64,000 nt of DNA from an uncultured Fidelibacterota bacterium (GTDB taxonomy: Bacteria; Fidelibacterota; Marinisomatia; Marinisomatales; UBA1611): positions 1-64,000 of the forward strand of contig CAJWHW010000002.1 in NCBI GenBank assembly GCA_913040915.1, read 5' to 3'. Position numbers and translations under genes: made by a program. This document shows, in pieces, positions 34,717-58,849 of this stretch; positions within the stretch are counted from its first letter, which is position 1, and every line of letters begins with the position of its first letter. The notes under the pieces are model-generated. The model was not told the DNA's origin. It saw nothing but the letters and a program-made list of their open reading frames with translations, and searched no databases.

Positions 34717-35145
34717 TTATATATAATTGATTAATGTTTTTAACGCCTCTAAGTATCCAGGTTTCCCTAAACCTGAAATTTGATCTATGCACTTTTCCTT
34801 TATTACTGATATTCTTCTGAATTCCTCTCTTTGATTTATGTCACTGATGTGGACTTCAACTACTGGAGTCTTTATAGAAGAAATTGCATCTCGAAGTGCA
34901 TATGAATAATGTGTTAATGCACCTGGGTTAATAATTATTCCATCAAATTTGTGTACAGAATTGTGAATTTGATCAATAAGATCTCCCTCGTGGTTAGATT
35001 GGAACCAAATTATTTCATGCTCAGCTGATTCTATTTGAGAGTCAAGCCAAGATTCAATATCATTTAATGAATCGGTTCCATAAATATCAGGTTCTCTTAA
35101 CCCTAATAGATTGAGATTAGGACCATTTAAGACTAAAAACTTCAT
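34717..35145 (-). CDS. aroQ: Type II 3-dehydroquinate dehydratase
   Basis: LNGPNLNLLG.REP.IYG, NPGA.THYS, EVHIS. Confidence 0.97.
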   Translation of the reverse strand: MKFLVLNGPNLNLLGLREPDIYGTDSLNDIESWLDSQIESAEHEIIWFQSNHEGDLIDQIHNSVHKFDGIIINPGALTHYSYALRDAISSIKTPVVEVHISDINQREEFRRISVIKEKCIDQISGLGKPGYLEALKTLINYI

Positions 35146-36212
35146 TGAATTACTCGAAGAGATTCTTTGATTAATTGCTCAGAAACTTCTTGAGACGTAT
35201 TTCCTTTGCCAAGCTTATCTAAAACCACAAAATGAAGGATTCCATTTCTAACTTTTTTATCCTTTTTAACAAAAGATAAAATCGTATTTGGGTCTAATTT
35301 TTTAACATTAGGCAGTTTAAGTTTATTAATTGTATTAAATAAGTGAATTTCATCATCTGCGTTGAGCCGTCCGATTTTTTTGGATATCCACGCTGCACAT
35401 TTCATTCCTAGAGCTACAGCTTCACCATGTCGTATTCGTCCATATCCAGAATACGCTTCCAAAGCATGACCAATGGTGTGACCAAAATTTAATAGTTTTC
35501 TCAATCCATCTTCCCGTTCATCTTTAGAAACAATTTCAGCTTTAATCTCACAAGATCTGAATATCGCTTTTTCAAAAGGAAAATTATTTAAATCATCAAG
35601 CCAAAATGATATGTCGTTAAAGAAATTACGATCCCATATAGCACCATATTTTATAATTTCACCCAAACCAGCGATAGTCTCTTCTTTGGGCAAAGAGTTC
35701 AATATTTTAGGATCCACCAAAACTCCTTTTGGTTGATAAATAGATCCAATAAGGTTTTTCCCTTCAGCAATATTAATTCCTGTTTTCCCTCCAATTGCAG
35801 AATCCACCATAGCCAAAAGCGTTGTGGGAATTTGATAATAATCAATACCACGCATGAAAGATGATGAAACAAACCCACCTACATCACCGACCACACCACC
35901 ACCCAATGCCAATACAACTGAAGATCTGTCACATTTGTATTCAATCATCTGGTTAATTAATTTGCTGAATTCATTTAAGCTTTTAGCAGTCTCTCCTATG
36001 GGAAGTGTTAAATAATCTATATCAAAGTCAGCATTTTTCAGTTCATTCATTAGTTGAAATCCAAATAATTCCATGAGCTTATGTTGAGATATAATTATCC
36101 ACTTTTGACCGTGATTATGTTCAGACAAAAGTGCAGGGGCGCTCTGAAGTAGCCCCGATTTTACCTGAATTGGGTAAGAGCGAGTGCCTAGCTTAACTTG
36201 GATATTTTTCAT
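35142..36212 (-). CDS. aroB: 3-dehydroquinate synthase
   Basis: GGGVVGD, PTTLLAMVDSAIGGKTG, LNFGHT.GHA.E, HGEAV. Confidence 0.97.
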   Translation of the reverse strand: MKNIQVKLGTRSYPIQVKSGLLQSAPALLSEHNHGQKWIIISQHKLMELFGFQLMNELKNADFDIDYLTLPIGETAKSLNEFSKLINQMIEYKCDRSSVVLALGGGVVGDVGGFVSSSFMRGIDYYQIPTTLLAMVDSAIGGKTGINIAEGKNLIGSIYQPKGVLVDPKILNSLPKEETIAGLGEIIKYGAIWDRNFFNDISFWLDDLNNFPFEKAIFRSCEIKAEIVSKDEREDGLRKLLNFGHTIGHALEAYSGYGRIRHGEAVALGMKCAAWISKKIGRLNADDEIHLFNTINKLKLPNVKKLDPNTILSFVKKDKKVRNGILHFVVLDKLGKGNTSQEVSEQLIKESLRVIQ

Positions 36213-36706
36213 GATTTTAGATTAATTAAAATTTCATTTGTGATTATTTCAGGAGTTTTTCCATCAGTTTCTATAGTTATATCTGCCGTAGATGAATAAT
36301 GATCTTTTCGTTTTGACCACAATTCACTAAGTGAATCTTCTGGGGAATTTTGAGCCAATAGAGGCCTTTTATTTGAATACTTTAATCTATTTGTTAATTC
36401 TCTAATGGAAGCTGTTAATAAGATAGTAGTACCATTTCTTCTAATCAGGTTACGGTTTTCTTCTTTCAGTATAATTCCACCACCACAAGATATAACTGAA
36501 TCTGAAACTTTTTTAAGATGTTCTGTTTCTATTTTTCTGAAAATATTTTCTCCATCTATCCTAAATATATCAGAAATAGTCCTTTTTGTACTTTTTTCAA
36601 TCTCTTCATCTAGGTCAATAAATGGCTTTTTCACCTTATTTGCTAACAAGATACCTATGGTTGATTTACCTGTACCCATCATTCCAATTATGAAAATGTT
36701 CATCAA
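36209..36706 (-). CDS. aroK: Shikimate kinase
   Basis: GMMGTGKS P-loop, DLD, GE..FR, SCGGG, RPLL. Confidence 0.95.
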   Translation of the reverse strand: MMNIFIIGMMGTGKSTIGILLANKVKKPFIDLDEEIEKSTKRTISDIFRIDGENIFRKIETEHLKKVSDSVISCGGGIILKEENRNLIRRNGTTILLTASIRELTNRLKYSNKRPLLAQNSPEDSLSELWSKRKDHYSSTADITIETDGKTPEIITNEILINLKS

Positions 36707-37863
36707 TATTTTGCAGTAGCATTTAAATGAGCTTTGAGTTGCTCCATGGAATCGCCTCCAAACTTTTCCAATAATGCATCAACAAGTACAAAACATAACA
36801 TACTTTCTGCAATGATTGAAGCTGCAGGTACAGCACATGAATCTGTTCTCTCTTTATGTGCGTTTTTCTTTTCTTTAGTATTAATATCAATAGATCGTAA
36901 TGGTTTGATAAGAGTTGGGATTGGTTTCATTGCAATTTTTAGAACTATAGGCTGGGCATTACTCATCCCACCTTCAATTCCGCCCGCATTATTTGAGTAT
37001 CGGGTAAATTTTTTCCCATCATAACCAATTTCATCATGAACTTCACTACCAAATATTTTTGCGCCTACAAAACCACTGCCAATTTCTATTGCTTTAAATG
37101 CATTCACACTCATCATCATTGCTGATAAGCGCGTTTGTAGTTTTCTATCCCATTGAGTATGTGCACCAAGTCCATAGGGAACCCCTGTTGCAATCACTTC
37201 AAAAATCCCTCCTACTGAATCACCTCTTTCTTTGGCACTTTTGATTTTGTTTATCATTTTTATTTCAGCATCATTATCTAGACAGCGAACATCCGATTCA
37301 TCTGCTTTTTCACTCAATTGATTTGGTGTAAGATTCTTGGGCAAAGGATGATCATCCCTTATATCATGAATCTCGATCACTCGGCTTCCAACTTCTATAT
37401 CCACATCTTCCAATAATTTTCGACAAATGGACCCAAGTGCTACACGCATGGCGGTTTCTCGTGCACTGGAACGTTCCAAAACATTACGAATATCATCGAA
37501 TCCATATTTTTGAACGCCAGCCAGATCTGCATGCCCGGGTCGTGGGAGAGTTACTTTCCGAATATCACCTTCTACTGGATTTATGGACATTTTCTTAGTC
37601 CAGTTTTTCCAATCCTTATTTTTAATAATAAGTCCGACAGGTGCACCTATAGTTTTACCATGGCGAATACCAGACCAAATTTCAGCATAATCACTTTCAA
37701 TTTTCATTCTTCCTCCACGGCCATATCCCATTTGGCGTCGCTGAAGATGTCTACCTATATATTTTTCAGAAATTTCTAATCCTGCAGGTATGCCATCTAA
37801 GATACCTAGCAAACCTTTTCCATGAGATTCCCCAGCTGTTAAAAATTTAATTTGTCTTAACAT
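36703..37863 (-). CDS. aroC: Chorismate synthase
   Basis: TAGESHG, PRPGHAD, ERSSARET, GGIEGG, KPIPT. Confidence 0.98.
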   Translation of the reverse strand: MLRQIKFLTAGESHGKGLLGILDGIPAGLEISEKYIGRHLQRRQMGYGRGGRMKIESDYAEIWSGIRHGKTIGAPVGLIIKNKDWKNWTKKMSINPVEGDIRKVTLPRPGHADLAGVQKYGFDDIRNVLERSSARETAMRVALGSICRKLLEDVDIEVGSRVIEIHDIRDDHPLPKNLTPNQLSEKADESDVRCLDNDAEIKMINKIKSAKERGDSVGGIFEVIATGVPYGLGAHTQWDRKLQTRLSAMMMSVNAFKAIEIGSGFVGAKIFGSEVHDEIGYDGKKFTRYSNNAGGIEGGMSNAQPIVLKIAMKPIPTLIKPLRSIDINTKEKKNAHKERTDSCAVPAASIIAESMLCFVLVDALLEKFGGDSMEQLKAHLNATAKY

Positions 37864-38663
37864 AATTTTAATTTTAATACCTTTTTAATTTTTCCTAAGT
37901 CAACTTGTTTAGAAATATTTTGTTTAAACCATATATCACAAGATGCCAAACCCTGGGCAATGAACATATCTAAACCAATTACGGTTTTAACTTTAACCTC
38001 AATACCTTTTTTAAGCCATTTTGTTTGAAGAGGGTTGTAAATAGTTTCAACCAGTATATTTTTTTTGCAAAAATTAACACTCGGAATTGATTTAATATCT
38101 GGCCACATACCAATTGGAGTGCAGTTTATGATTATTTGGTAATGATGCGGCTTGTTTAATTGTTGAACTTGTGTTGTATGTATAGTAGATATTTTTTTTA
38201 TCCATTTGACAAGGTTCTTTGCTCTTTCAATAGTACGGTTAACAATTGTTATTGATTTTACTTTTTCCATAATCAGGGCATAAGCTACTGCCCGTGCTGC
38301 ACCCCCAGCACCAAGGAGCACACAATTTTGTTCATTTAAATCAATACCATTGATTTCCATGGCTCTGGAAAATCCAATCCAATCAGTATTATAGCCCGTA
38401 GAGTTATCTACGCAATTGACAGCACCAATGATTTGGGCGGCATCATCCAATCTATCCAAGAAAGGAATAATGGATTCCTTGTGTGGCAGGGTGACATTGA
38501 AACCATTTAATTGGTTTGAATTTATAAATAAGTCCATTGAATTATCTTCTACCTGAATTTTTTCATATTCAGCTTTAATATTTAATTGTTTATATATTTC
38601 GTGATGTAACGTTGTACTCAAACTATGAGCGATAGGGTCACCAATAACTGCAAATCGTTTCAT
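37857..38663 (-). CDS. aroE: Shikimate dehydrogenase
   Basis: HSLS, GFNVTLPHK, GAVN, NTD, GAGGAA, NRT. Confidence 0.95.
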   Translation of the reverse strand: MKRFAVIGDPIAHSLSTTLHHEIYKQLNIKAEYEKIQVEDNSMDLFINSNQLNGFNVTLPHKESIIPFLDRLDDAAQIIGAVNCVDNSTGYNTDWIGFSRAMEINGIDLNEQNCVLLGAGGAARAVAYALIMEKVKSITIVNRTIERAKNLVKWIKKISTIHTTQVQQLNKPHHYQIIINCTPIGMWPDIKSIPSVNFCKKNILVETIYNPLQTKWLKKGIEVKVKTVIGLDMFIAQGLASCDIWFKQNISKQVDLGKIKKVLKLKLC

Positions 38664-39907
38664 CGACGCAACCTTGCTAATCCATCATAGAACTCTGGAT
38701 AAGAAATAGAAGCACAGTCCGGATAGTCTAAAAGCAATTCACCATCACTAATAATTCCTGCAACAGTAAAGGCCATTGCTATCCTGTGATCCCGAAATGT
38801 TTCAATTTTTGCACCCTTTAATTGTGTTGGTCCATGAATAATAAACCCATCTTTAAATTCTTCGATTCTACCACCCATATTTTTCAAATTGCTACAGATG
38901 GCATGAATTCTATCACACTCTTTTACACGGAGTTCTTCTGCGCCTCTGACCACAGTTTTTCCAATTGCCTGGGTAGCCAAAATTGCAAGTATAGGTAATT
39001 CATCAATTATCCCAGGTACATCTTTTTTGGAAATTGATGTGCCCCTTAACTGTTGATAAACTACCCGTATATTACCTATTGGTTCTCCTGAATTGGTCCA
39101 TTGTTTGATGCAGGTTATCCTAGCACCCATTTTTTGGAGTATACTATAAAAACCAATTCGAGTGGGATTCCTTAAAATACTATTCAGAGTCAAATCCGAG
39201 TTTGGAACCATTGCTGCAGCTGCAGCAAAAAATGCAGCTGTGGATGGATCACCTGGGACCGTAAGTTGTATAGGAGCTAGGGGACGATTAGTTTTGGAAA
39301 TAATTGTCTTTAGTTTATTAGTTAAGATGTTAGCGCCCATACTCTTTAGCATTCGTTCAGTATGATCCCTAGAAAGAATCGGTTCAGTTATTGATGTTTC
39401 ATTTTTTGAGCCTAAGCCTGCCAGAAGTACAGCTGATTTTACTTGGGCACTTGCTATTGGTGAATTATAATGAATATTATTCAGATTACTCTTGTAAATG
39501 GTTATAGGCAATTTCCCATGATTACTTTTTGATTCCAATCCCATTTGTGATAATGGATCTAAAATACGATCCATAGGACGTGAAGAGAGAGAATCATCTC
39601 CAATTAAAGTTGCATTAATGCCCTTCATGTGTAAAAGTCCTAAAAGCAATCGTGCTGTAGTTCCCGAATTTCCACAGTCTAATGGTTTTGTTGGGTCTAA
39701 AAATTTTCCCCCAATCACGATCAAAACATCTCCATTATTTTCAAATTGAATACCACAGCTTTTTAGACAGGATATAGTAGTTTGTAAATCGGCACCAGTG
39801 GATAAATTAGAAATCCGAGACTCTCCATCAGAAATAGCTGCAAACATAAGAGCGCGATGAGAGATTGACTTATCTCCCGGCAATGAGATTTTACCCTGAA
39901 TGGCCAT
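38660..39907 (-). CDS. aroA: EPSP synthase
   Basis: PGDKSISHR, GNSGTT, SAQVKSA, RVKECDR, DHRIAM. Confidence 0.98.
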   Translation of the reverse strand: MAIQGKISLPGDKSISHRALMFAAISDGESRISNLSTGADLQTTISCLKSCGIQFENNGDVLIVIGGKFLDPTKPLDCGNSGTTARLLLGLLHMKGINATLIGDDSLSSRPMDRILDPLSQMGLESKSNHGKLPITIYKSNLNNIHYNSPIASAQVKSAVLLAGLGSKNETSITEPILSRDHTERMLKSMGANILTNKLKTIISKTNRPLAPIQLTVPGDPSTAAFFAAAAAMVPNSDLTLNSILRNPTRIGFYSILQKMGARITCIKQWTNSGEPIGNIRVVYQQLRGTSISKKDVPGIIDELPILAILATQAIGKTVVRGAEELRVKECDRIHAICSNLKNMGGRIEEFKDGFIIHGPTQLKGAKIETFRDHRIAMAFTVAGIISDGELLLDYPDCASISYPEFYDGLARLRR

Positions 39908-41240
39908 TAGACTTTAATTCATCTGCAATCAAAAAAGCTAATTCTATAGCCTGATTTGCATTAAGGCGTGGATCACAGTGAGTATGGTAACGGTTTGATA
40001 AATCAGATTCAGATATATCATCTAATCCGCCAGTACATTCTGTCACATTTTGTCCAGTCATTTCTAAATGAATACCTCCTAAATGTGAATCATTATTTTT
40101 GTGTATTTTAATATTTTGTTTTACTTCTTCTAAAATATGATCAAATGGTCGTGTTTTAATTCCACCAGAACTCTTAATTGTATTACCATGCATTGGGTCG
40201 CAGGACCAAATAACAGTTCTGCCTTCAGACTGTACTTTTTCGACTAGCTTGGGTAAGTAGAATTCAACTTTTTTATGACCAAACCTTGTAATTAATGTAA
40301 TCCTACCAGCCTGATCATTGGGATTAAGAATATCGAGAAGCTTAATTAATTCGTCAGCATCTAAAGAAGGACCACACTTAATGCCAATTGGATTATTGAT
40401 TCCTCGGCAAAATTCTATATGAGCACTTTCTTCAAATCGCGTCCGATCTCCGATCCAGACAAAATGGGCTGATGTGTTATAAATATCACCAGATGTTGAA
40501 TCGATTCGAGTCATTGCCTCTTCATATGGAAGTAATAATGCTTCGTGACTTGTATAATAATGCACTTGCCGGAGTTGAGGTGTATTGCTAGAATTAATTC
40601 CTAGTGCATCCATAAAGTTCAAGCTTTCTTGAATCTGATGAGCTAAATGTCGGTACCTTTCACCCTGCGGACCGCTTTTCACAAAACCCATATTCCAGGA
40701 GTTAACATGGCGAAGATCAGCGTAGCCTCCATCGGCAAAAGCTCGTAGTAAGTTTAAAGTAGATGCGGCTTGAGAATAGGCCTTTAGCATTCGGTCTGGG
40801 TCTGGTTGTCGTTTATTTGCTTCAAAATGGATATCATTAATTATATCACCAGTGTAGCTTGGGAGTTCTATCCCATTTTTAGTTTCAGTAGGACTTGAAC
40901 GAGGTTTGGCAAATTGTCCTGCCATTCTGCCAACTTTAACGACAGGGAGATTGGCTCCAGATGTTAGGATTACTGCCATCTGTAAAATGACCCTAAATGT
41001 ATCCCGAATATTGTCAGCATTAAATTCTGTAAAACTTTCTGCGCAATCTCCACCTTGTAAGAGAAAGCCATTGCCTTCTGCCACTTCTGCCAGTGATCGC
41101 TTTAAAGAACGAACTTCACCCGCAAAAACTAAAGGCGGAAATCCTTTCAATATATTTTCAACTTCACTTAAATGATCTTGATTTGAATAATTTGGAATAT
41201 GTTTTGCTGTAAAATTCCGCCAACTATCAGGTTGCCACAT
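39891..41240 (-). CDS. Class II DAHP synthase
   Basis: LQGGDCAESF, RMAGQFAKPRS, WIGDRTR, CDPMHGN, CDPRLN. Confidence 0.97.
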   Translation of the reverse strand: MWQPDSWRNFTAKHIPNYSNQDHLSEVENILKGFPPLVFAGEVRSLKRSLAEVAEGNGFLLQGGDCAESFTEFNADNIRDTFRVILQMAVILTSGANLPVVKVGRMAGQFAKPRSSPTETKNGIELPSYTGDIINDIHFEANKRQPDPDRMLKAYSQAASTLNLLRAFADGGYADLRHVNSWNMGFVKSGPQGERYRHLAHQIQESLNFMDALGINSSNTPQLRQVHYYTSHEALLLPYEEAMTRIDSTSGDIYNTSAHFVWIGDRTRFEESAHIEFCRGINNPIGIKCGPSLDADELIKLLDILNPNDQAGRITLITRFGHKKVEFYLPKLVEKVQSEGRTVIWSCDPMHGNTIKSSGGIKTRPFDHILEEVKQNIKIHKNNDSHLGGIHLEMTGQNVTECTGGLDDISESDLSNRYHTHCDPRLNANQAIELAFLIADELKSNGHSG

Positions 41241-41964
41241 TTTTTAATTTCTCCATACGATTATCTAAAGATTCCATTGCCAGTTTGACATTTTTTATCA
41301 TGTCTTTTGTATAGGGGTTATAAAGTTGCAGATCTGTATATAATTCCCACGTATCGTTACAGGTTTGATCTACTAAGTCCAGTAGGTCGCGAAACCCTTG
41401 AGTGTCAATAACAGTTTTACTGATACCATATTCCTTTAGCATTCTACCAAGAAAATGTGTTACTCCCTGAGTTTTAGCGGCCAGTTTATCATGTTGATCT
41501 GGAGACATTTCCATAACTTGGATTCCTTGATCAGTGAAAAATTGTTTCCAGAAAGAAAATTGGTTATGGTGATCTCGAGTATTGTCCATCATCATTTTTA
41601 GGCGATTATTCGAAAAATATGAATCGGGTCCAAACATGGGGTGGGTAGCAATGATACTTACCTGTTCCGGAAGTATCTTTTTCATGACTTCAGTAGGATA
41701 TTTTTTCACTGAACATACATCAATTACTAAGGCTTGTTCAGAAAGCTTTGAAGCAATATTCTGGATCACGGATTCAAAGTGCCTTATCGGAACTGCAATG
41801 AAAATTACCTCTTCCTTTAAAACAGTGGTTAAGTCAGCAATTTCCACTCCGGTGAATGTATGAGGAGGGGTCAGGTCGTATGTTTTAATAGCGAACCCTT
41901 TTTGTAAAATATTGGCTAGAACTTTTCCAAATCTGCCAAAACCTATTAATCCTACACTTTTCAT
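41227..41964 (-). CDS. tyrA: Prephenate/arogenate dehydrogenase
   Basis: GFGRFG, DVCSVK, THPMFGP, HD..AA..QG.TH. Confidence 0.92.
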   Translation of the reverse strand: MKSVGLIGFGRFGKVLANILQKGFAIKTYDLTPPHTFTGVEIADLTTVLKEEVIFIAVPIRHFESVIQNIASKLSEQALVIDVCSVKKYPTEVMKKILPEQVSIIATHPMFGPDSYFSNNRLKMMMDNTRDHHNQFSFWKQFFTDQGIQVMEMSPDQHDKLAAKTQGVTHFLGRMLKEYGISKTVIDTQGFRDLLDLVDQTCNDTWELYTDLQLYNPYTKDMIKNVKLAMESLDNRMEKLKNVAT

Positions 41965-42534
41965 TTATTCTCCAAGGTGTTTAACCCCAAGAAATAAGGT
42001 CAAATTATGCTTTAGGTCATGAATACTTTCTTGGAGGATCTCAAGTCCATAAAGGTCTGCGCAAGCTTTATTGGCAATAACACCTGCAGTTGGTGGTAGT
42101 TTTCCTTCTGATAACCTTCTTGCTGCTTCTGCTGTATCATCTTCCTCGATAAGTGGACGTGTCCAAAAATGTTCACTCAGGTAATCTTTACACTGCCGCA
42201 GAGCTTGTTGGTGAGAATGGATTTCAGTCACATCTCCAATATTAGTACCGGTTAATCCTAAAAGATTTTGATTAACAGTGATGTGAAACATTTCTACAAT
42301 TTCACAGCGATATTTTGCTAAAGCTTCTACACTTTCGATCACGACTCCGCCTTGGGCATTTTCCATAGCAAAAACACCATACTCTGTAACACCATTTTCA
42401 ACACCATGCAGCACAGATTTTGATGAAATTTGATAAATAACTTTTGCATCTAAAATTCCGTGGTTTTTTGCAAATTCAGATGCAGCTTCTTCTGAAAAAC
42501 TTCCTTTTCCGCCTTGTATACCAATAGTACTCAT
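41965..42534 (-). CDS. pheA: Prephenate dehydratase, catalytic domain only
   Basis: QGGKGSFSE.A, EN...G.V, SHQQAL.QC, DTAEAA, N.T.F; ends before any ACT domain. Confidence 0.88.
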   Translation of the reverse strand: MSTIGIQGGKGSFSEEAASEFAKNHGILDAKVIYQISSKSVLHGVENGVTEYGVFAMENAQGGVVIESVEALAKYRCEIVEMFHITVNQNLLGLTGTNIGDVTEIHSHQQALRQCKDYLSEHFWTRPLIEEDDTAEAARRLSEGKLPPTAGVIANKACADLYGLEILQESIHDLKHNLTLFLGVKHLGE

Positions 42535-43301
42535 AAAATTCCTTTCAGTTCTTTAATAAATTGGTTTGTTTTTGTAATAGGATCATCACAGTTATCCATA
42601 TTATTAATAATTGCTGATCCTACAACTGCACCATCCGAATAATTATTAAACCAAACAACATCATCTTTATTACTAATACCAAACCCTACTATAAATGGAG
42701 TCGTACTATTTTCACGAACTCTTGTTAAATAATTTTTTAAAGCATCCCTTGATATAAGATTATCTCCAGTAATACCTAATATGCTTACTGCATAAATGAG
42801 ATCTCCTGCTAATATTGAAATGTTTTTAATTCGTTCATTAGTTGTATTTGGTGCTACCAACAAGATAGGGGAGATGCCTTTTTCTTTGGCTAACTCACAA
42901 AATGACTCGGCCTCATCTAATGGTAAATCAGGAAGAATCAAACCATCCACACCTGAAGCAACACAACGATCTAGAAAAATCTCGTGCCCCATTTTTAAGA
43001 TCGGATTATAATATCCCATCAGGGCTAAAGGGATGGAAACTTTATTACGTATCTGCGTTGCTTGCTCAAAAATCAAATTTAATGTTATACCATTATCTAA
43101 GGCCTGCTGGCTAGATGCTTGAATTATAGGTCCATCTGCTTGTGGGTCAGAAAATGGAATTCCAATCTCAATCATATCTGCCCCTGCATCAGTGGCAGCA
43201 CAGACTAACTCTACAGTACTGTCTAAATTTGGATATCCTGCTGTTATGAAAGGAATGAGTTTTTTTCGAGGTTCTTTAAATAAAGCTTGAATACCGTTCA
43301 T
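42531..43301 (-). CDS. trpA: Tryptophan synthase alpha subunit
   Basis: [33 protein letters not shown]. Confidence 0.98.
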
Positions 43302-44503
43302 AGTTTTTCTCCTAAGGTTTCAGCAACGGTATTAACGTCTTTATCACCACGACCAGAAAGGCAGACCAAGACATCTTCATTTGGTTTAATTCCATTATTT
43401 GATTGACGTAAATAAGCTATAGCATGAGCAGTCTCAAGTGCTGGTAGTATACCTTCTTTTTTTGATAACCATTGAAATGCGTCTAATGCTTCCTGGTCTG
43501 TGGCAGAGCGGTATTCTATTCTACCTACTTCGTTTAAATAACTATGTTCTGGGCCGATGCCAGGATAATCTAGGCCAGCGGAAATGGAATGGGGTAGAAT
43601 AACCTGCCCATCATTATTTTGAAGTAAAGTAGAAGCAGCGCCATGCAATACTCCAAATTCTCCTTTATTCATAGTGGCAGCATGTTCTCCAGATTCAAGC
43701 CCTTTACCAGCTGCTTCAACTCCAATAATCTTTACATCATCTTTCAGAAATGAATAAAATAATCCCATTGCATTTGATCCGCCTCCCACACAGGCAACTA
43801 AACGATCTGGTAAAATTTTATCAGATTGTTGAGAAAATTGTTTTTTTGTCTCCTTCCCAATTATTGATTGAAAGTCTCTTACAAGCATTGGATAAGGATG
43901 GGGGCCAACGGTTGAGCCAATTAAATAATAGGTGGATTCAACATTAGTTACCCAATCACGGATAGCTTCATTGGTGGCATCCTTTAAAGTCATGCTACCT
44001 GAAGACACTGGTCTGACTTCAGCATTAAGTAATTTCATCCGAAATACATTTAATTTTTGTCTTCGTATGTCTTCTTCGCCCATATAAATAATACATTCTA
44101 ACCCAAATCGTGCAGCAACCGTAGCGGTGGCAACGCCATGCTGCCCAGCACCAGTTTCAGCAATAATTCGTTTTTTCCCCATTTGCTTAGCCAATAAGAT
44201 CTGCCCCAAAGCATTGTTGATTTTATGAGCTCCGGTATGATTTAGATCTTCTCTCTTTAGCCATATATTAAATTCCAATTCTTTTGAAATACGTTCTGCG
44301 AAGTAGAGAGCTGTCTCACGTCCTGAATAATGATTAAGTAAATTATTTAACTCATCTTGAAAAAAGCGATCATTTGTTGCCCTAAGATATTGTTTCTCTA
44401 ATTCTTCTAGAGCTGGAATAAGTGTCTCGGGTACATACTTTCCACCAAACTTATCAAAATGTCCTCGTTCATCTGGAAGGTTATAATTATCAAATTTTCT
44501 CAT
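43298..44503 (-). CDS. trpB: Tryptophan synthase beta subunit
   Basis: [37 protein letters not shown]; start moved to MRKF at 44503. Confidence 0.98.
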
Positions 44504-44510
44504 TTTTTTA

Positions 44511-45158
44511 TCATGATTTAAGTAAACCAGAGAATACATTAAAATTTGTGACAGTATCTCTGATATTTTTAAAAAATAATTTAATTTTTAGGTGATCTTT
44601 TATGCCTGGTGATTTTTCTAAACCACTATTTAAGTCAATGGCATCAGGTTTCATTAATTTAATTGCCTTCAAAACATTTTCTGAATTAAGTCCGCCAGAA
44701 AGGATAATCGGTTTATCTGTTGGATTTATAAAAAGTGACCAGTCAAAAGTTTCTCCTGTGCCTCCATATTTATCCTTTGAAAAAGTATCAAATAAAAATG
44801 CATCTACATTATAATCATTCATAATTGAAAAGCTACCTGAATTTCTAATATGAAGTGCTTTTATTACAGGTAATTGAAACTGTTCACAGAATTCCGGTGA
44901 TTCATCTCCGTGTAATTGAATTATGTTCAAGGGCACATTTTGGACTGCTTCTAAAATGAATGGCATAGACTGATCAACAAAAACCCCCAGTTTTATTGTT
45001 TTATCAGGTAAATGATCTGAAATAAATTTTGCTTTTTTGATAGTGATAGCACGGGGACTCTTATCATAAAAAATAAATCCAATTGCTGCTGCACCAAATT
45101 CTAATGCGCATTGAGCATCTGCAATATTTGTAATCCCACATACCTTTGTTGCCATCAT
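44511..45158 (-). CDS. trpF: Phosphoribosylanthranilate isomerase
   Basis: KVCGIT, SPR, QLHGDE, GGTG..FDW, LSGGL. Confidence 0.96.
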
Positions 45159-45916
45159 ACTAATTCTCCCACTAAATCGTCTAAAGCTTTGCCAGGATTT
45201 CCAGTTTTCATGAGTGAAGTTCCAACTAAAACCGCATCATACCCTAAATCATAAACATATTTAAGATCATCGGGAGACTTTATTCCGCTTTCTGCTACTT
45301 TTAGAGAAGATCTTGGTAAATAATTTACTATCTTTGAAAAATAGGATATATCAGTATTCATTGTTTTTAAATCTCGACAGTTAACACCCACAATTTCTGG
45401 TTTAATCTCTCCAATAATTTTTGCATTTTCATCACTGTGGAATTCTACCAATACATCTAGATTCATTTTATTCCCAATAGCTATTAATTCAGCAATTTTC
45501 CTATCATCTAAAGCTTCTGCAATAAGTAAAAAAGCATCCGCTTTGGCGAAACCTGATTGAATTATTTGACATGGATCAATAATAAAATCCTTACGAAGAA
45601 TAGGAATAGATACTTCATTCTTTATTGATTCTAAAACGTCAATATGTCCGCCGAAAAACTGTTGATCTGTTAATACTGAAATTGCTGAAGCACCTGCTGA
45701 CTCATAATCCTTAGCAATCTGAATTGGGTCAGCATTTGGCAGGATTAAGCCTTCACTGGGAGATTTCATTTTAATTTCAGCTATAATCGATAACCTTTGA
45801 TTTGTAAGAGCATCTTTCAGGCTTAATGTATGAAATGGTTCAACCCCATTAGCAAAAGGCGGCATGTGCTCTATCTCTTTCTGCTTGATATCTAAAATTT
45901 GTTCAAGGATATTCAT
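45155..45916 (-). CDS. trpC: Indole-3-glycerol phosphate synthase
   Basis: IAEIK.KSPS, ISVLTD, LRKDFI, AESGI. Confidence 0.96.
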   Translation of the reverse strand: MNILEQILDIKQKEIEHMPPFANGVEPFHTLSLKDALTNQRLSIIAEIKMKSPSEGLILPNADPIQIAKDYESAGASAISVLTDQQFFGGHIDVLESIKNEVSIPILRKDFIIDPCQIIQSGFAKADAFLLIAEALDDRKIAELIAIGNKMNLDVLVEFHSDENAKIIGEIKPEIVGVNCRDLKTMNTDISYFSKIVNYLPRSSLKVAESGIKSPDDLKYVYDLGYDAVLVGTSLMKTGNPGKALDDLVGELV

Positions 45917-46908
45917 TTTGTCATTTGTGATAACACATTTAGTGCCGCACCTGAATCAATAGACTCAGATGCTTTTAATAATCCTTCTTTTAGGGTTTTT
46001 GCCTTATTACCTACAACGATCCCAGCAGCTGCATTAATTAAAACAATATCACGTTTGGGCCCCATTTCACCATTTAAAATGTTTTTAATAATCTTCGCAT
46101 TTTCTTTTGGGTTGTAACCCATCAGATCATCTAAAGAAGCTTGATTTAAACCTAGCTTTCTAGAATCAAATTCGATTGTTGAAACATGCCCACCATTTTG
46201 CATTTGGCTGATTTTTGTGGTAGTTGTTGTAGAGATTTCATCTAAACCATCACGGCCGTGAAAAACCATTACATCTGTAGAACCTAATGCTTTTAATACG
46301 TTTGTTTGAACCTCAGTCAAATCAGGATGAAAGATGCCCATAGCTTGAGCTTTAACATTTGCAGGATTACACAGGGGACCAAGAATGTTGAAAACTGTTC
46401 GTGTGGCTAAAGCAGTTCTTGCTCCAATAGCATGTTTCATAGCTGGGTGGTATGCCGGTGCGAACATAAAACCCAATCTATAATTTTCTATATCCTCTAA
46501 AAATTTATCTACAGATTTGTCAATAATAATTCCTAATTCTTGAAGAACATCGGCCGATCCTGATTTAGATGTCATGGAACGGTTCCCATGTTTTGCAACA
46601 CGCACACCTGTCCCAGCTACAACAAATGTTGCTGCAGTGGAGATATTGAATGTACCCGATGCATCACCGCCAGTACCACACATATCAATGGCTGGTGTAC
46701 TTAGTGGAACTGTAACCATTTTTTCTCTCATGGCCTTTGCAAAGCCTGTGATTTCATCCACTGTTTCACCTTTAGCCCGAAGCGCTACTAAAAATCCAGA
46801 AATTTGTGCATCATTATATTCCCCTGACATAATGGATAGCATTACTCTAAAAGCTTCATCTTTAGAAAGATTTTGTTTATCTAATAATTGTTCTAATATT
46901 TGTTTCAT
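45913..46908 (-). CDS. trpD: Anthranilate phosphoribosyltransferase
   Basis: CGTGGD, NIST, KHGNRS..S.SGSAD, GLDE. Confidence 0.97.
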   Translation of the reverse strand: MKQILEQLLDKQNLSKDEAFRVMLSIMSGEYNDAQISGFLVALRAKGETVDEITGFAKAMREKMVTVPLSTPAIDMCGTGGDASGTFNISTAATFVVAGTGVRVAKHGNRSMTSKSGSADVLQELGIIIDKSVDKFLEDIENYRLGFMFAPAYHPAMKHAIGARTALATRTVFNILGPLCNPANVKAQAMGIFHPDLTEVQTNVLKALGSTDVMVFHGRDGLDEISTTTTTKISQMQNGGHVSTIEFDSRKLGLNQASLDDLMGYNPKENAKIIKNILNGEMGPKRDIVLINAAAGIVVGNKAKTLKEGLLKASESIDSGAALNVLSQMTK

Positions 46909-46962
46909 TGTAAGCTCAAAGACTCTAGTTATAACTGTAGTTATATTTTTGTTTTAACAAGA

Positions 46963-47532
46963 TCAACATTTTATTGTTAAGAAGTTTTTTATTATTTGTA
47001 AACCATTCTCAGTTGCTATGGATTCAGGATGAAATTGTAATCCATAGACTGGATCATTTTTGTGTTCTATGGCCATAATTAGGCCATTGTTTAATTCTGC
47101 TGTTATTATTAATTCTTTAGGGAGTAATTTTTTGTCAGCTACTAATGAATGATAGCGAGTGGCCATAAAAGATCCTGAAAATCCTTTGAATAGAGCAGAT
47201 CCATTATGTTGAATCTTTGCAGTCTTACCATGAACAATCTCCGATGAATGAACTACTGTGCCACCATAAGCAATTGTAATTGCTTGATGGCCAAGACAGA
47301 CTCCAAGTATAGGAATTTCTTTCCCATATTTTTTAATAATATTTACAGAATGACCCGCATTTTCAGGCCTCCCGGGTCCAGGAGAGATGACAATATGAGT
47401 TGGATCCCAATGAACAATATCATCCAATTCGAATTGATTATTTCGTATCACTTTCACATCTGGATTAAGAACACCGATGTATTGTACCAGATTAAATGTG
47501 AAAGAGTCGTAATTATCAATAACTAAGATCAT
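46963..47532 (-). CDS. trpG: Anthranilate synthase glutamine amidotransferase
   Basis: IDNYDSFT, SPGPG, GVCLGHQ, RYHSL, QFHPES. Confidence 0.96.
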   Translation of the reverse strand: MILVIDNYDSFTFNLVQYIGVLNPDVKVIRNNQFELDDIVHWDPTHIVISPGPGRPENAGHSVNIIKKYGKEIPILGVCLGHQAITIAYGGTVVHSSEIVHGKTAKIQHNGSALFKGFSGSFMATRYHSLVADKKLLPKELIITAELNNGLIMAIEHKNDPVYGLQFHPESIATENGLQIIKNFLTIKC

Positions 47533-49013
47533 GCTGCTAATCCATCCTCTGCGAAGTCAATTGCTGACATGATAGCCTTGGCCTTACTTACCGTTTCCTC
47601 AAATTCTTTGGTGGGGTCTGAATCATAGACAATGCCTGCACCGGACTGAAAATGGACGGATCCATTTTTCATAATCATAGTCCTTATAGCTATACAAGTA
47701 TTTACATTGCCGGTAAAATCAAAAAACCCGACAGCACCTGAATAAATATTTCGTCGTTCAGGTTCTAGATCTTTGATTATTTCCATAGCTCGAATTTTGG
47801 GAGCACCTGTAACCGTACCAGCAGGGAAACCACTCATAAGCGCATCAAATGGATCTTTATGTTCGGCAAGCTTTCCTTTTACATCAGAAACAATATGCAT
47901 AACGTGGGAATAATTTTCGATTACCATATTCTCGGGAATGGTAATTGACCCAAATTCTGAGACACGGCCCACGTCATTTCTGCCCAGATCTAAAAGCATA
48001 AGGTGTTCTGCTCTTTCCTTTTCATCATTTAATAGTTCGTGCGCTAATTTTTTATCTTCATCAACTGAGTCCCCACGTTTACGCGTGCCTGCAATAGGGC
48101 GGATTTCCACATTGCCATCTTCTACTTTTACTAAGAGTTCAGGTGATGCACCAATAATATCAAAATCATTAATCTTTAAATGGAACATATATGGTGATGG
48201 ATTAATGTTTCTCAAAGCTCGGTAAAGGGTTGTAGCCTCTACATCGGTGGCCCTTTCGAACCGCTGACTGAGAACCAGTTGAAAAATATCACCGTTGACA
48301 ATATACTCTTTAGCTTTAGCCACTGCTTTCTCAAATTTATTTTGATCAAAATTTGAAATTACTTTACTTTTTTTTACTTGTATTGGCGTCTGATAATCCA
48401 CATTAGTATGTAGTGATTCGCCAATTATATCTATCTTTGAATGTGCTTTATTAAATTGGAATTCCAAATCTGCTGAATCATCAATATTAACATTTGAGAT
48501 TACTAATGCAGACCCTTTTAAGTGATCGAAAGCAATTATGTTTTCAAATAACATAAAGACTGAATCAGGTATATTTAATGCTGAATCTGTGTGAATTGGA
48601 ATATCTTCGAACCAGGTGATAGTCTCATAGCCAAGGTAACCAACTAGTCCACCGGTAAAAGATGGAATCCCGGGAAACTTCATCATTTTATATTGAGATT
48701 GAATATCGCGAAGTAAATCTAAAAATGGTGTTTCCACTTTATTTTTGTTACCATTTTTATAGATAATTGTTTGTCCATTTTTGTGTGTCAATATTTGTTT
48801 TGGATTAATTCCTACATAAGAATATCTGGTATATTGATTCCCTTTTTCTACAGATTCTAGTATGAAAGCATATTTAGCCTTTTGAGATAAATGTATCCAT
48901 GCTGCCACGGGCGTAAGAAGATCTGCCAGGATACGTTTATATACAGGTATAGTTCGGTTCCCTTGGGAAACCAAATCTTGAAATTCTTTGTAGGTCAGTT
49001 GAGTTTTATCCAT
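47529..49013 (-). CDS. trpE: Anthranilate synthase component I
   Basis: LESVE, NPSPYM, SPE, PIAGT, EHLMLLDLGRND, PAGTVTGAPK; ATG at 49013 preferred because the track's TTG lies in the terminator U-tract. Confidence 0.96.
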   Translation of the reverse strand: MDKTQLTYKEFQDLVSQGNRTIPVYKRILADLLTPVAAWIHLSQKAKYAFILESVEKGNQYTRYSYVGINPKQILTHKNGQTIIYKNGNKNKVETPFLDLLRDIQSQYKMMKFPGIPSFTGGLVGYLGYETITWFEDIPIHTDSALNIPDSVFMLFENIIAFDHLKGSALVISNVNIDDSADLEFQFNKAHSKIDIIGESLHTNVDYQTPIQVKKSKVISNFDQNKFEKAVAKAKEYIVNGDIFQLVLSQRFERATDVEATTLYRALRNINPSPYMFHLKINDFDIIGASPELLVKVEDGNVEIRPIAGTRKRGDSVDEDKKLAHELLNDEKERAEHLMLLDLGRNDVGRVSEFGSITIPENMVIENYSHVMHIVSDVKGKLAEHKDPFDALMSGFPAGTVTGAPKIRAMEIIKDLEPERRNIYSGAVGFFDFTGNVNTCIAIRTMIMKNGSVHFQSGAGIVYDSDPTKEFEETVSKAKAIMSAIDFAEDGLAA

Positions 49014-49020
49014 TTTGCGC

Positions 49021-49050
49021 AAAAAAAAACCCCGATCATTGCCGGGGTTA
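49021..49050 (-). terminator. Attenuator intrinsic terminator upstream of trpE
   Basis: Minus strand AACCCCGG-caatga-TCGGGG followed by 9 T. Confidence 0.92.
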
Positions 49051-49083
49051 AAGTGCAGTCAATATATACAGGTATCCCTGGGA

Positions 49084-49152
49084 CTACGTAACCCCTTTAA
49101 GGCTAAAAAACCAATACCAGTTGTAATAATTTTCTATGTTTTTGTAATTCAT
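49084..49152 (-). CDS. Aromatic amino-acid leader peptide (22 aa)
   Basis: MNYKNIENYYNWYWFFSLKGVT*; YYNWYWFF cluster; its 3' end (GGGGTTA) is complementary to the terminator 5' arm (TAACCCC). Confidence 0.88.
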   Translation of the reverse strand: MNYKNIENYYNWYWFFSLKGVT

Positions 49153-49192
49153 AGCATCAAATATTAAGGAAAAGTGAGAACTGTATCCAACA

Positions 49193-49465
49193 TTATTTAT
49201 TTTTTTGAAATTTTTTTGAAATTTTATAAACAGGATCAAAAATTGAAGCAATATCTTCTTTATTTAGCTTTCCATCCAATTTATTGGCAAGATGCTCTAT
49301 AATTTCTTTTTCTCGATTTGGATCATGGATTTTAATATTATTGGATGCTTTGATTTCACCAATCTGTTTTGAAATAGAAAAACGCTTTAAAAGAAAATCT
49401 AATATTTGATTATCTAAATAATCAATTTTGTCTCGCAGTGAATCAATTTTCTCTTTTGGGTTCAT
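49193..49465 (-). CDS. Monofunctional chorismate mutase (AroQ/CM_2 type)
   Basis: LRDKID.LD..I...L.KRF......G..K and D..RE motifs. Confidence 0.9.
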   Translation of the reverse strand: MNPKEKIDSLRDKIDYLDNQILDFLLKRFSISKQIGEIKASNNIKIHDPNREKEIIEHLANKLDGKLNKEDIASIFDPVYKISKKFQKNK

Positions 49466-49522
49466 GAATTAAACTACACAAATCATAAATTGGTTAGAAA
49501 GTGAAATAATCAAAATATTTAA

Positions 49523-50665
49523 TTAAGTTTGTTCCAATGCCTGTTTGAGGTCAGCAATAATATCTTTGTGGTTTTCTATCCCCACGGAAATTCGCACTAA
49601 ACCATCTGTGAGGCCTCGGGCATCTCGTTCTTTTTTCGGGACATCCGCATGGGTCATGGTAGCAGGGTGAGTGATCATGGTTTCCACAGAACCCAAACTT
49701 TCTGCTAACTTTGCCAATTGAACAGAATTCATCACAATTTTTGCTGCGGGGATGCCGCCAATTAATTCAAAAGAAATCATACCACTATATCCGGACATTT
49801 GTTTTTTGGCAATAGCGTGGCAAGGATGAGAAGGGAGTCCAGGATATGCTACCCGGAATACTTTAGGATGAGCCTCTAAATATTCCGCTACTGCTTGGGC
49901 ATTTGAAAAATGCTTTTTCATTCGTATATCCAATGTTTTAACACCGAGAATGGTGAGCCAGCAATCAAAGGGCCCGGGAACGGCGCCAATGGTTTTTTGG
50001 ATGAATTTCAGTTTTTCAAACAAGTCTTCCCTATTGGTAATTACTACGCCCCCAATCAATTGGTTATGGCCGCTTAAATATTTGGTAGTACTGTGCATCA
50101 CCAAATCTGCACCGAATTCCATTGGTCGGAGGAAAACAGGTGTAGCAAAGGTAGAATCCACTCCAAATAAGATATTATGTTTTTTAGCAATTTCACCAAC
50201 AGCTTCAAGATCTGTGATCTTTAATAATGGGTTTGTGGGTGTTTCTATCCAAATTAATTTTGTTTTGGGTTGAATTGCATTTTCAACATTTGTAGGAATG
50301 GAAGAATCTACATACGTGAAATGTAAATCATAATTCACTAAGATCTGGTTAAAATACCGGGACACGCCACCGTAAACATCATCGGAACAAATGATATGGT
50401 CGCCTGCTTTCAACAATTTTAAAACACCATCCACAGCGGACATACCACTAGCAAAGGCAATTCCAAATTGTCCTCCATCAAGCTCGGCTAAAATTTCTTC
50501 CATAACCTGTCTTGTGGGGTTGGATGAACGGGTATAGTCAAATCCTTTATCTTGGCCAACTTCTTCCAAAACGTAAGTGGCTGTTTGGTAGACAGGCGGT
50601 AGGATAGACCCAGTAGTAGGATCAGGTTCTGTACCTGCCTGGACAACTTTTGTATCAAATTTCAT
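49523..50665 (-). CDS. Cystathionine gamma-synthase/lyase family
   Basis: DYTRSSNPTR, SGMSA, ETPTNP, HSTTKYLSGH, AESLG.VE. Confidence 0.9.
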   Translation of the reverse strand: MKFDTKVVQAGTEPDPTTGSILPPVYQTATYVLEEVGQDKGFDYTRSSNPTRQVMEEILAELDGGQFGIAFASGMSAVDGVLKLLKAGDHIICSDDVYGGVSRYFNQILVNYDLHFTYVDSSIPTNVENAIQPKTKLIWIETPTNPLLKITDLEAVGEIAKKHNILFGVDSTFATPVFLRPMEFGADLVMHSTTKYLSGHNQLIGGVVITNREDLFEKLKFIQKTIGAVPGPFDCWLTILGVKTLDIRMKKHFSNAQAVAEYLEAHPKVFRVAYPGLPSHPCHAIAKKQMSGYSGMISFELIGGIPAAKIVMNSVQLAKLAESLGSVETMITHPATMTHADVPKKERDARGLTDGLVRISVGIENHKDIIADLKQALEQT

Positions 50666-56645: not shown

Positions 56646-56786
56646 AGATATTTTTCCTTATTTTGTGTTATTTATTGGTTTGTTACTAATATTTATGAAT
56701 TAGTTATTCATAATAAATACAAAACGTAATTGATAGCTTGTTGGGATAATATGTTAGAGGGCAAGAGACATTACAGCAGTATCTGT

Positions 56787-56898
56787 CTTATCAGTCTTCT
56801 AAAAAACTCGAAGCAGGAATTAGCACCTTGAACCGCATTGTACGGAGATGGTTGCTAAGGTATCTTAGGGCCTGATCCCTCCACCTTTCTGGATAAAA
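56787..56898 (-). ncRNA. SAM-I (S-box) riboswitch
   Basis: Minus strand TTATCCAGAAAGGTGGAGGGATCAGGCCCTAAGATACCTTAGCAACC...GGTGCTAATTCC...GATAAG: P1, kink-turn P2, GCAACC and GGTGCTAA conserved; sits upstream of met/thr genes. Confidence 0.95.
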
Positions 56899-57052
56899 TC
56901 CGGTACTGATCTGTCAAAAAGCATAAAAAACTTCTTTTAAATGTTAAATATGAAAATAAAATAATGCAAGATAACATTAATATATTTAACTATACTCCAT
57001 CATTTTCTATAATTTTTTTATAAATAAAAGGAATATGATTTATATTTGAATG

Positions 57053-57092: not shown

Positions 57093-57176
57093 ATGAACAT
57101 ACGACGACGCCATAACCATCATCTTAACACTTTGATTAATAACAATAATAATATGAGTGGGGGCGAAGCTTTGTAA
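57093..57176 (+). CDS. Asparagine-rich leader peptide (27 aa)
   Basis: MNIRRRHNHHLNTLINNNNNMSGGEAL*; 8 Asn, 5 consecutive; directly upstream of a terminator and asnB. Confidence 0.85.
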   Translation: MNIRRRHNHHLNTLINNNNNMSGGEAL

Positions 57177-57259: not shown

Positions 57260-58849
57260 ATGTGTGGCATATTTTTATATAAAGGTAGAAAACAAGATTG
57301 GAATTCATTGGAACCTGATATTAAACGGATTGGTTATCGCGGCCCAGATAATACACACCATGAAATGATTGGCAATGATATATTATTAGCTTTCCATCGA
57401 TTAGCTATCATGGGCACAAGTGAAATGGGCGATCAACCGATGAAACATCCCAATGATGCTTCGCTCACTCTGATCTGTAATGGTGAAATTTATAATTATA
57501 AAAATTTAGCTAAAAAATATAGCTTTAATTTGAAGACAGGCTCTGATTGTGAAATTATTTTATTCATGTTTAAACAATTTGGTATTCAAAGAACTGTAAA
57601 GGAATTAGATGGCGTTTTCATGTTCGTATTATATGAAGCAAATACTGGTCTACTTTTTGCTGGCCGGGATCCCATGGGTGTTCGTCCGGGGTTTATCGGT
57701 CGAAATGGAGATGAGATTATGATTGCATCAGAAGCAAAATCCATGGTGAATCATTCTTCAAGTATTATTCCATTTCCCCCAGGGCATTGGTGGTGTTCGA
57801 ACCTTTCAGATATATTCAATCCTTATTTTCTTTATAATAAAATCAAAATTCAAGAAAACACCGAAGAAGATATTTGTAATAAAATCCAGTTATTATTAAC
57901 AGCTGCAGTTAAGAAACGGCTTATGACAGAACGTGATATTGGGTGTTTATTATCTGGTGGTTTGGATTCGAGTTTAATTTGTGCTCTTGTGAATAAGTAT
58001 TATGAAGGACCAAAACTAAATACATTTTCTATTGGACTTGTAGGGAGCATTGACCTTGAATATGCACAAGATGTGTCCTCTCATTTGAAATCAAAACACC
58101 ACCAGATAGAAGTATCTCAAAATGAGTTTTTAGATGCAATTGAAACTGTGATTTATAATATTGAATCTTATGATACTACTACAGTCAGAGCCAGTGTAGG
58201 CAATTACCTCGTTTCAAAATATATTTCAGATAATTCTGATTGCAAGGTGATTTTTAACGGTGATGGCAGTGATGAGGTATGTTGTGGATATGTATATTTA
58301 AGGAATGCACCATCACCAGTTGATTTGCAAAAAGAAAATGAAAGGCTGGTTGAAGAGATTCATTATTTTGATGTGCTGCGCTCAGACCGCAGTATTAGTT
58401 CTAATGGTTTGGAAGCACGGACGCCTTTTTTGGATAAAACATTTGTGAAGTATTATTTATCAATTCCTGCGGAATTAAAGTTATTTGATGGGGCACAAAG
58501 ATTAGAAAAATATTTATTAAGAAAAGCTTTTGATGATCAGGGACTTTTACCAGATAAAGTTTTATGGCGTCGGAAATGTGCTTTTTCAGATGGTGTAAGT
58601 TCGCAGAATAATTCCTGGCATCATATTATCCAATCATTTGTAGACCAAAAAATTAGTGATGAAGAATTTCAGCGAGAAAGCACTAAGATCACACATTGCA
58701 CTCCTCAATTAAAAGAGAGTTATTACTATCGTAAAGTATTCAATAGCTTCTTTGAGAATCATGAGAATTTAATTCCTCATTTCTGGATGCCTAAGTGGTC
58801 CAATACGATAGACCCTTCAGCTAGAGAATTAAGTGGGTACAAAGAATAA
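57260..58849 (+). CDS. asnB: Glutamine-hydrolysing asparagine synthetase
   Basis: MCGI Ntn start, RGPD, NGEIYN, LSGGLDSS, PFLD, RRK.AFSDG, DPSAR. Confidence 0.96.
   Translation: MCGIFLYKGRKQDWNSLEPDIKRIGYRGPDNTHHEMIGNDILLAFHRLAIMGTSEMGDQPMKHPNDASLTLICNGEIYNYKNLAKKYSFNLKTGSDCEIILFMFKQFGIQRTVKELDGVFMFVLYEANTGLLFAGRDPMGVRPGFIGRNGDEIMIASEAKSMVNHSSSIIPFPPGHWWCSNLSDIFNPYFLYNKIKIQENTEEDICNKIQLLLTAAVKKRLMTERDIGCLLSGGLDSSLICALVNKYYEGPKLNTFSIGLVGSIDLEYAQDVSSHLKSKHHQIEVSQNEFLDAIETVIYNIESYDTTTVRASVGNYLVSKYISDNSDCKVIFNGDGSDEVCCGYVYLRNAPSPVDLQKENERLVEEIHYFDVLRSDRSISSNGLEARTPFLDKTFVKYYLSIPAELKLFDGAQRLEKYLLRKAFDDQGLLPDKVLWRRKCAFSDGVSSQNNSWHHIIQSFVDQKISDEEFQRESTKITHCTPQLKESYYYRKVFNSFFENHENLIPHFWMPKWSNTIDPSARELSGYKE

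Follow-up and report, generated by a model that had tools for sequence, protein, structure and literature searches.

The 64,000-nucleotide stretch of DNA analysed here (the window) carries an aromatic amino acid operon whose first gene, trpE, is preceded by a short reading frame packed with Tyr, Trp and Phe codons. We propose, with a probability of about 0.7, that this frame belongs to a transcription attenuator of the ribosome-mediated type, in which a single control block reads all of Trp, Tyr and Phe. That a real and conserved leader-peptide attenuator stands ahead of trpE is, in our view, almost certain; that it senses all three aromatic amino acids is the most likely state of affairs. By sequence comparison we show an upstream ORF, a codon block, a terminator and a predicted antiterminator, and the conservation of each of them.

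Leader, promoter and terminator

The leader ORF (49084..49152, minus strand, as are all features below unless stated otherwise) encodes 22 amino acids, as read from the translation of the window and the comparison of leaders. Codons 9–16 (Y9–F16, 49105..49128) form the block YYNWYWFF, that is, three Tyr, two Trp, two Phe and one Asn; the translation agrees in this with the initial annotation of the DNA, which had reported seven aromatic residues in an 8-codon block of a minus-strand ORF at 49152–49084. This AT-rich genome has 1293 short upstream ORFs that qualify as candidates; 3 of them contain 7 aromatic residues within 9 codons, and 30 contain at least 5. Among the 151 short ORFs with a U6 tract downstream, only the trpE leader has at least 5, and in this short frame codons for the end products of the pathway stand close together.

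The candidate promoter comprises a TTG-led −35 hexamer, TTGGAT (49185..49190), at a position conserved among leaders, and a −10 hexamer, TAATAT (49161..49166), located 8 nt 5′ of the leader ATG. A promoter of the form TTGGAT-18-TAATAT, ending 8 nt before the ATG, had been suggested; the motif is present and its spacing is conserved, 46 of 76 leaders having TTG, 17–18 nt and a −10 hexamer that ends 6–10 nt 5′ of their start codon, versus 0–4 of 76 for the same pattern at six other offsets. The hexamers themselves, however, are weak (a 7/12 match to the consensus) and were not listed by the promoter scan. A Shine-Dalgarno match of 5/6 or better was seen in 1 of 76 leaders. The leader transcript is likely leaderless or near-leaderless, as predicted from the placement of the −10 hexamer. 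Four leaders (L069, L070, L072 and L081) start with GTG rather than ATG, though they are apparently leaderless.

As had also been noted, the leader ORF is followed by an intrinsic terminator, a GC-rich hairpin plus a 9-U tract (49021..49050), and a hairpin with a U-tract could be assigned in 76 of 76 leaders. Between the end of the terminator and the trpE ATG there are 8 nt. This gap (49013–49029 with the U-tract) contains no Shine-Dalgarno-like sequence, and close relatives are alike. The 5′ arm of the terminator doubles as the 3′ strand of a predicted antiterminator, so that the two structures are mutually exclusive: GGGGTTA in leader codons 20–22 (49089..49095) is exactly complementary to TAACCCC (49050–49044), a match that the initial annotation had pointed out. 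The predicted fold also contains the inner helices of the long alternative hairpin described there (GTAGTC/GACTGC and CAGG/CCTG; 49055..49087), which the antiterminator encloses; they overlap the leader stop codon and vary in sequence among relatives.

The GGG/CCC core of the antiterminator was invariant in 41 of 41 leaders and, being invariant, is uninformative on covariation. At six positions beyond the core, 177 of 246 cells pair, through several pair types; 2000 partner shuffles averaged 140 and reached 157 at most. The leaders behind this statistic are related and not independent. Because the MAFFT alignment put the GGG run one column off between subgroups, the G and C runs served as anchors for the pair count, a choice that by construction favours core pairs.

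Folding models and the proposed switch

The folding model took the nascent RNA as transcribed to the terminator loop and assumed a ribosome footprint reaching +13 from the P site. In this model the antiterminator had P>0.5 in 61 of 76 leaders when the ribosome was stalled at the first aromatic codon, in 56 of 76 when it was stalled at the last, and in 0 of 76 when it was at the stop codon; with shuffled spacers, the count was 2 of 76. In silico, then, a stall frees the 5′ strand of the antiterminator and a ribosome at the stop codon covers it. The last aromatic codon lies mostly 7–14 nt 5′ of that strand. A codon-by-codon stall series was run on 39 of the 44 leaders of operons with branch enzymes, namely those with a matching terminator pattern. 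The modelled antiterminator was retained in 36 of 39 at the last aromatic codon, in 27 of 39 at +1 and in 7 of 39 at +2. Its loss by +2 suggests that the aromatic block directly abuts the limit of the usable stall window, and the Phe pair of the studied leader falls inside that modelled window.

The antiterminator formed in the model also without a ribosome (in 34 of 39 leaders and, in a separate fold, in the studied one), and for this reason no protector hairpin is evident; a 1:2 protector or pause hairpin of the E. coli trp/his type was not found in the folding models. A local hairpin over codons 17–22, considered as a strong protector, was rejected: it is present in the full-length minimum free energy (MFE) structure, but the antiterminator wins in nascent RNA. 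In the equilibrium ensemble of the full-length RNA the terminator prevails (P about 0.92) wherever the ribosome stands, which implies that the switch must be kinetic. The MFE of the whole leader (z −1.5 against shuffles, 17 of 200 being as good) is no evidence by itself. Of four RNA runs, one contained 15% of the words; the contigs covered 49468–49780 and two short pieces, none of them on the leader.

We propose that transcription begins at the leader ATG from a sigma-70-type promoter and gives an almost leaderless RNA. With an ample supply of charged aromatic tRNAs, the ribosome would pass F16 and cover GGGGUUA, allowing the terminator to form and transcription to stop at 49029–49021. When any aromatic aminoacyl-tRNA is short, the ribosome would stall at or before F16, GGGGUUA would pair with the 5′ arm of the terminator before the 3′ arm is made, and the polymerase would read on through trpE to aroQ. 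In the absence of a predicted protector hairpin, the default state of the switch would be open, and a ribosome that does not lag behind would close it; specificity would in that case depend on how many aromatic codons there are and not on where they stand. We infer that a shortage of each of Trp, Tyr and Phe alone would trigger read-through.

The operon and its neighbours

Sixteen co-oriented genes, trpE through aroQ, lie downstream of the leader: trpE, trpG, trpD, trpC, trpF, trpB and trpA (42531..49013, with the trpE ATG at 49013), the genes of a 189-aa prephenate dehydratase that consists of a PDT domain alone (pheA) and of prephenate dehydrogenase (tyrA) (41227..42534), and the genes of a class II DAHP synthase, aroA, aroE, aroC, aroK, aroB and aroQ (34717..41240). 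The initial annotation had put the whole aromatic pathway under the control of the leader. The trp, phe, tyr and aro genes are indeed there, but the claim is overstated: no aminotransferase gene is among the 16, and the chorismate mutase gene (Pfam CM_2; 49193..49465) lies 5′ of the promoter and outside the attenuator, which is why the attenuated operon does not equal the whole pathway.

The chorismate mutase gene, found in the same position in many relatives, is the last gene of a thrA-asd-thrB-thrC-metB-like cluster headed by a SAM-I riboswitch (56785–56899, 73.8 bits, about 390 nt 5′ of the cluster genes). Apart from the leader's own hairpin, the terminator scan gave no terminator between chorismate mutase and trpE, so SAM-controlled read-through may also reach the attenuator. 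The prephenate dehydratase (41965–42534) apparently has no C-terminal regulatory domain, which we take to be the Phe-binding ACT domain, and this would shift more weight to transcriptional control. Among the 120 matches listed for this protein, the named ones were four from Marinimicrobia/Neomarinimicrobiota and one from Chloroflexi, which makes Marinimicrobia the probable lineage of this DNA.

Neither TrpR nor a TRAP gene (PF02081) was found in the 85%-complete genome, and no T-box RNA was matched by Rfam in the window, where the SAM riboswitch was the only family above threshold; attenuation dependent on a T-box or TRAP was thus not indicated in the window or in the 85%-complete genome. Near the leader no Rfam family reached its threshold. 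The Trp_leader family (RF00513) scored 20.7 bits (E 0.14) against a gathering threshold of 41 bits, which places the leader outside that family.

Leaders among relatives

Within the phylum, TrpE matches at E≤1e-90 were found in 86 of 301 genomes, and 80 regions were taken. A Trp-containing leader, picked by hand, was present at 75 of these 80 trpE loci; in the remaining five, one leader is cut by the contig end, one locus has no upstream DNA and three lack a leader (L053, L057 and L106). L053 and L057 have full aromatic or trp operons with neither leader nor terminator, and about 50 nt separate trpE from the end of another gene, an arrangement that suggests deletion of the attenuator. A set of 80 random trpE loci from other phyla, mostly without an aromatic leader, served mainly to locate two outside lineages, centred on Ignavibacterium and on an Aminicenantes record. 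TrpE matches were found in 29 of 121 and 76 of 81 genomes of their classes; 60 regions were taken, followed by 20 as an out-of-sample batch. A leader could be assigned in 47 of the 60 and in 16 of the 20, and the others were left out.

Conservation of the leader, the promoter spacing and the antiterminator does not depend on which gene lies upstream, and it extends to GC-rich relatives. Tyr and Phe codons are kept in leader loci of 30–62% GC and vary synonymously (TAT 81/TAC 24; TTT 62/TTC 11). Within the studied phylum, the W-only state is essentially confined to one clade. The W-only leaders L088, L091, L097, L098 and L100–L103 are longer, carry a conserved His-Phe pair about 6 codons past WWW and have a weak modelled antiterminator, which amounts to a different architecture. 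In the Ignavibacteria class sample (L191–L217), many trp operons have a class I DAHP synthase gene between trpF and trpB, and the leaders range from W-only to mixed W/Y/F.

Leader codons follow the enzymes of the operon

We placed 140 leaders on a tree, drawn from samples of three lineages: Marinimicrobia, Ignavibacteria and the class around an Aminicenantes genome. Leaving out 15 with too little downstream DNA and the truncated L036, we classified 124 by operon content. Codons were counted from 6 before the Trp cluster to 3 after it, a span set after seeing the data, and two other spans gave the same pattern. All of Trp, Tyr and Phe were present in the leaders of 33 of 33 operons with pheA and tyrA, and of 6 of 48 trp-only operons, as the initial annotation had predicted for a comparison of trpE upstream regions. 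The corresponding fractions were 7/12 for operons with tyrA only, 4/4 with pheA only and 11/27 with common-pathway genes only. Mean numbers of Trp/Tyr/Phe codons were 2.3/0.2/0.5 in trp-only operons (n=48), 2.7/0.9/1.2 with common-pathway genes only (n=27), 2.3/3.3/0.7 with tyrA only (n=12), 1.5/1.0/1.0 with pheA only (n=4) and 1.9/2.2/1.9 with pheA and tyrA (n=33).

In tree-corrected regression (Brownian, on a FastTree TrpE tree, a program that joins long branches more readily), tyrA was associated with 1.5 additional Tyr codons (p about 1e-9). The effect was +1.2 (p 0.001) without the strongest subclade and had p 0.02 within the phylum alone; before the extra batch was added, leaving out two loci abolished the signal (p 0.3). 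The association of Phe codons with pheA was marginal (+0.8, p about 0.08, range 0.05–0.1), that of Tyr plus Phe codons with extra genes had p 0.1 in the phylum alone, and operon content had no effect on the Trp count. In the out-of-sample batch, at least two Tyr codons were present in 3 of 3 tyrA-bearing versus 1 of 13 trp-only leaders. L059, which has tyrA without pheA, has a leader without Phe. Independent evolutionary pairs, 6–10 in number, went in the predicted direction or tied and were rarely opposite, and sign tests on them were not significant (median p 0.06–0.25; 0.125–0.5 after adding loci). At least two Tyr or Phe codons persist in 9 of 48 trp-only leaders (for example L078, L110, L202 and L280), and several of these lie within groups of operons that have branch genes, the pattern that recent loss would give. 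As judged from these comparisons, the codon content of the leader follows the enzyme content of the operon across lineages, more weakly for Phe and pheA than for Tyr and tyrA.

Discussion

The mechanism proposed here is textbook, as in trpL, pheL and thrL; the three-way codon mix is unusual. Multivalent leaders are known from thrL (Thr/Ile) and ilvGMEDA (Ile/Leu/Val), where, as in the ilvB uORF and in the leader studied here, one leader combines codons for more than one end product of a branched pathway; the pathway differs. The ilvB uORF of Corynebacterium is described as a multivalent example (PMC11109978). With E. coli trpL and pheL, as outlined in PMC1183508 and PMC3082878 and in RF00513, the leader shares a short upstream ORF with cognate codons, an antiterminator competing with an intrinsic terminator, a stop codon adjoining the antiterminator strand and a placement before trpE. 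It differs from them in having three amino acids in one block, a 16-gene operon, a predicted leaderless start and no predicted 1:2 protector hairpin. Mixed aromatic leaders have a precedent, the nearest being aroR, a Phe-Tyr-Phe leader before aroF of Corynebacterium glutamicum that, in the account of a review, responds to Phe and not to Tyr (PMC11802643). Both stand, with mixed aromatic codons, before shikimate-pathway genes; aroR, as described (PMC11802643, PMC4046766), has no Trp and is separate from trpL, whereas the studied leader has seven aromatic codons including Trp and precedes trp, phe, tyr and aro genes together. In Acholeplasma, uORFC-13-1 before aroF is likewise a predicted upstream ORF with a terminator ahead of a DAHP synthase gene, but is reported with Phe codons only and an RBS, and is itself a prediction (PMC8632094). 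Full-text searches of a collection with few subscription papers identified no paper on a Trp+Tyr+Phe leader or on a Marinimicrobia attenuator. Older comparative surveys of attenuators may list mixed aromatic leaders, and the primary paper on C. glutamicum aroR is Neshat 2014.

The main remaining rival is that the attenuator is real but dominated by Trp, or senses two of the three amino acids, the Tyr and Phe codons being weak contributors or inherited leftovers. The aroR leader, mixed and described as ignoring Tyr (PMC11802643), is a precedent for this, and the marginal association of Phe with pheA and the Tyr/Phe codons that outlast the loss of branch genes in L078, L110, L042, L280 and L287 point the same way. 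We nevertheless consider such partial sensing unlikely, given that these codons are kept with synonymous variation and across 30–62% GC, are mostly missing from trp-only operons in the three lineage samples and fall inside the modelled stall window. A different input is conceivable, since Trp, Tyr and Phe codons are all U-initial: the block could sense the modification state of tRNAs for UNN codons (MiaA/MiaB) and with it isoprenoid or iron–sulfur supply. The genome has a miaA-family gene, some leaders contain Cys, and loss of MiaA in P. aeruginosa is described as relieving trp attenuation (PMC13434334). Yet 260 of the 502 core codons of 44 leaders are Trp, Tyr or Phe, compared with 32 for Cys (7), Leu UUR (12) and Ser UCN (13) together, Ser is mostly AGY (28 versus 13 UCN), and Tyr content tracks tyrA specifically. 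As other UNN codons are not enriched, amino-acid identity and not a first-position U seems to be selected, and we regard this reading as quite improbable; tRNA modification may act as a secondary input.

Least probable of all is that the hairpin merely terminates the SAM-riboswitch transcript that runs from thrA to chorismate mutase, with the aromatic ORF an accident of AT bias. It would account for the lack of any other terminator found between chorismate mutase and trpE, and in an AT-rich genome the 30 short ORFs with at least 5 aromatic residues in 9 codons give it some footing. The conservation of leader, promoter spacing and antiterminator regardless of the upstream gene, in GC-rich relatives too, argues that this explanation is largely refuted; in addition, the 8-nt gap between terminator and trpE leaves no room for a promoter downstream of the terminator. 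An AT-bias origin of the ORF is ruled out by leaders in loci of up to 62% GC.

We thus favour an attenuator that reads Trp, Tyr and Phe together. A broader proposal, which we hold at slightly better than even odds, is that it represents a leaderless, protector-less three-input sensor, opened by a shortage of any one of Trp, Tyr and Phe, whose codons are re-tuned whenever the operon gains or loses branch enzymes, Tyr codons going with tyrA and Phe codons with pheA. Such re-tuning would have taken place repeatedly, in Marinimicrobia, in Ignavibacteria and in the Aminicenantes-centred class. Such a sensor would include a working Tyr-sensing leader peptide, of which our literature search found no demonstrated case. 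In E. coli, aromatic control is spread over TrpR, TyrR, trpL and pheL; here one 170-nt element would do work that E. coli divides among several regulators, and would do so in a marine lineage that is abundant, uncultured and small in genome size. Leaders with W only, W+Y and W+Y+F, matched to the content of their operons, form a natural test set for the weighing of inputs and for Tyr sensing, and leader codons might be used to predict operon products or the element as a compact biosensor part.

A second leader in the window is a candidate asparagine attenuator, on which a literature search found no paper. A leader peptide with an Asn run (57093–57176, plus strand) and a terminator extending to about 57236 precede asnB (57260–58849), and 17 of the 19 asnB loci with upstream DNA, that of the studied genome among them, have a short ORF rich in Asn.
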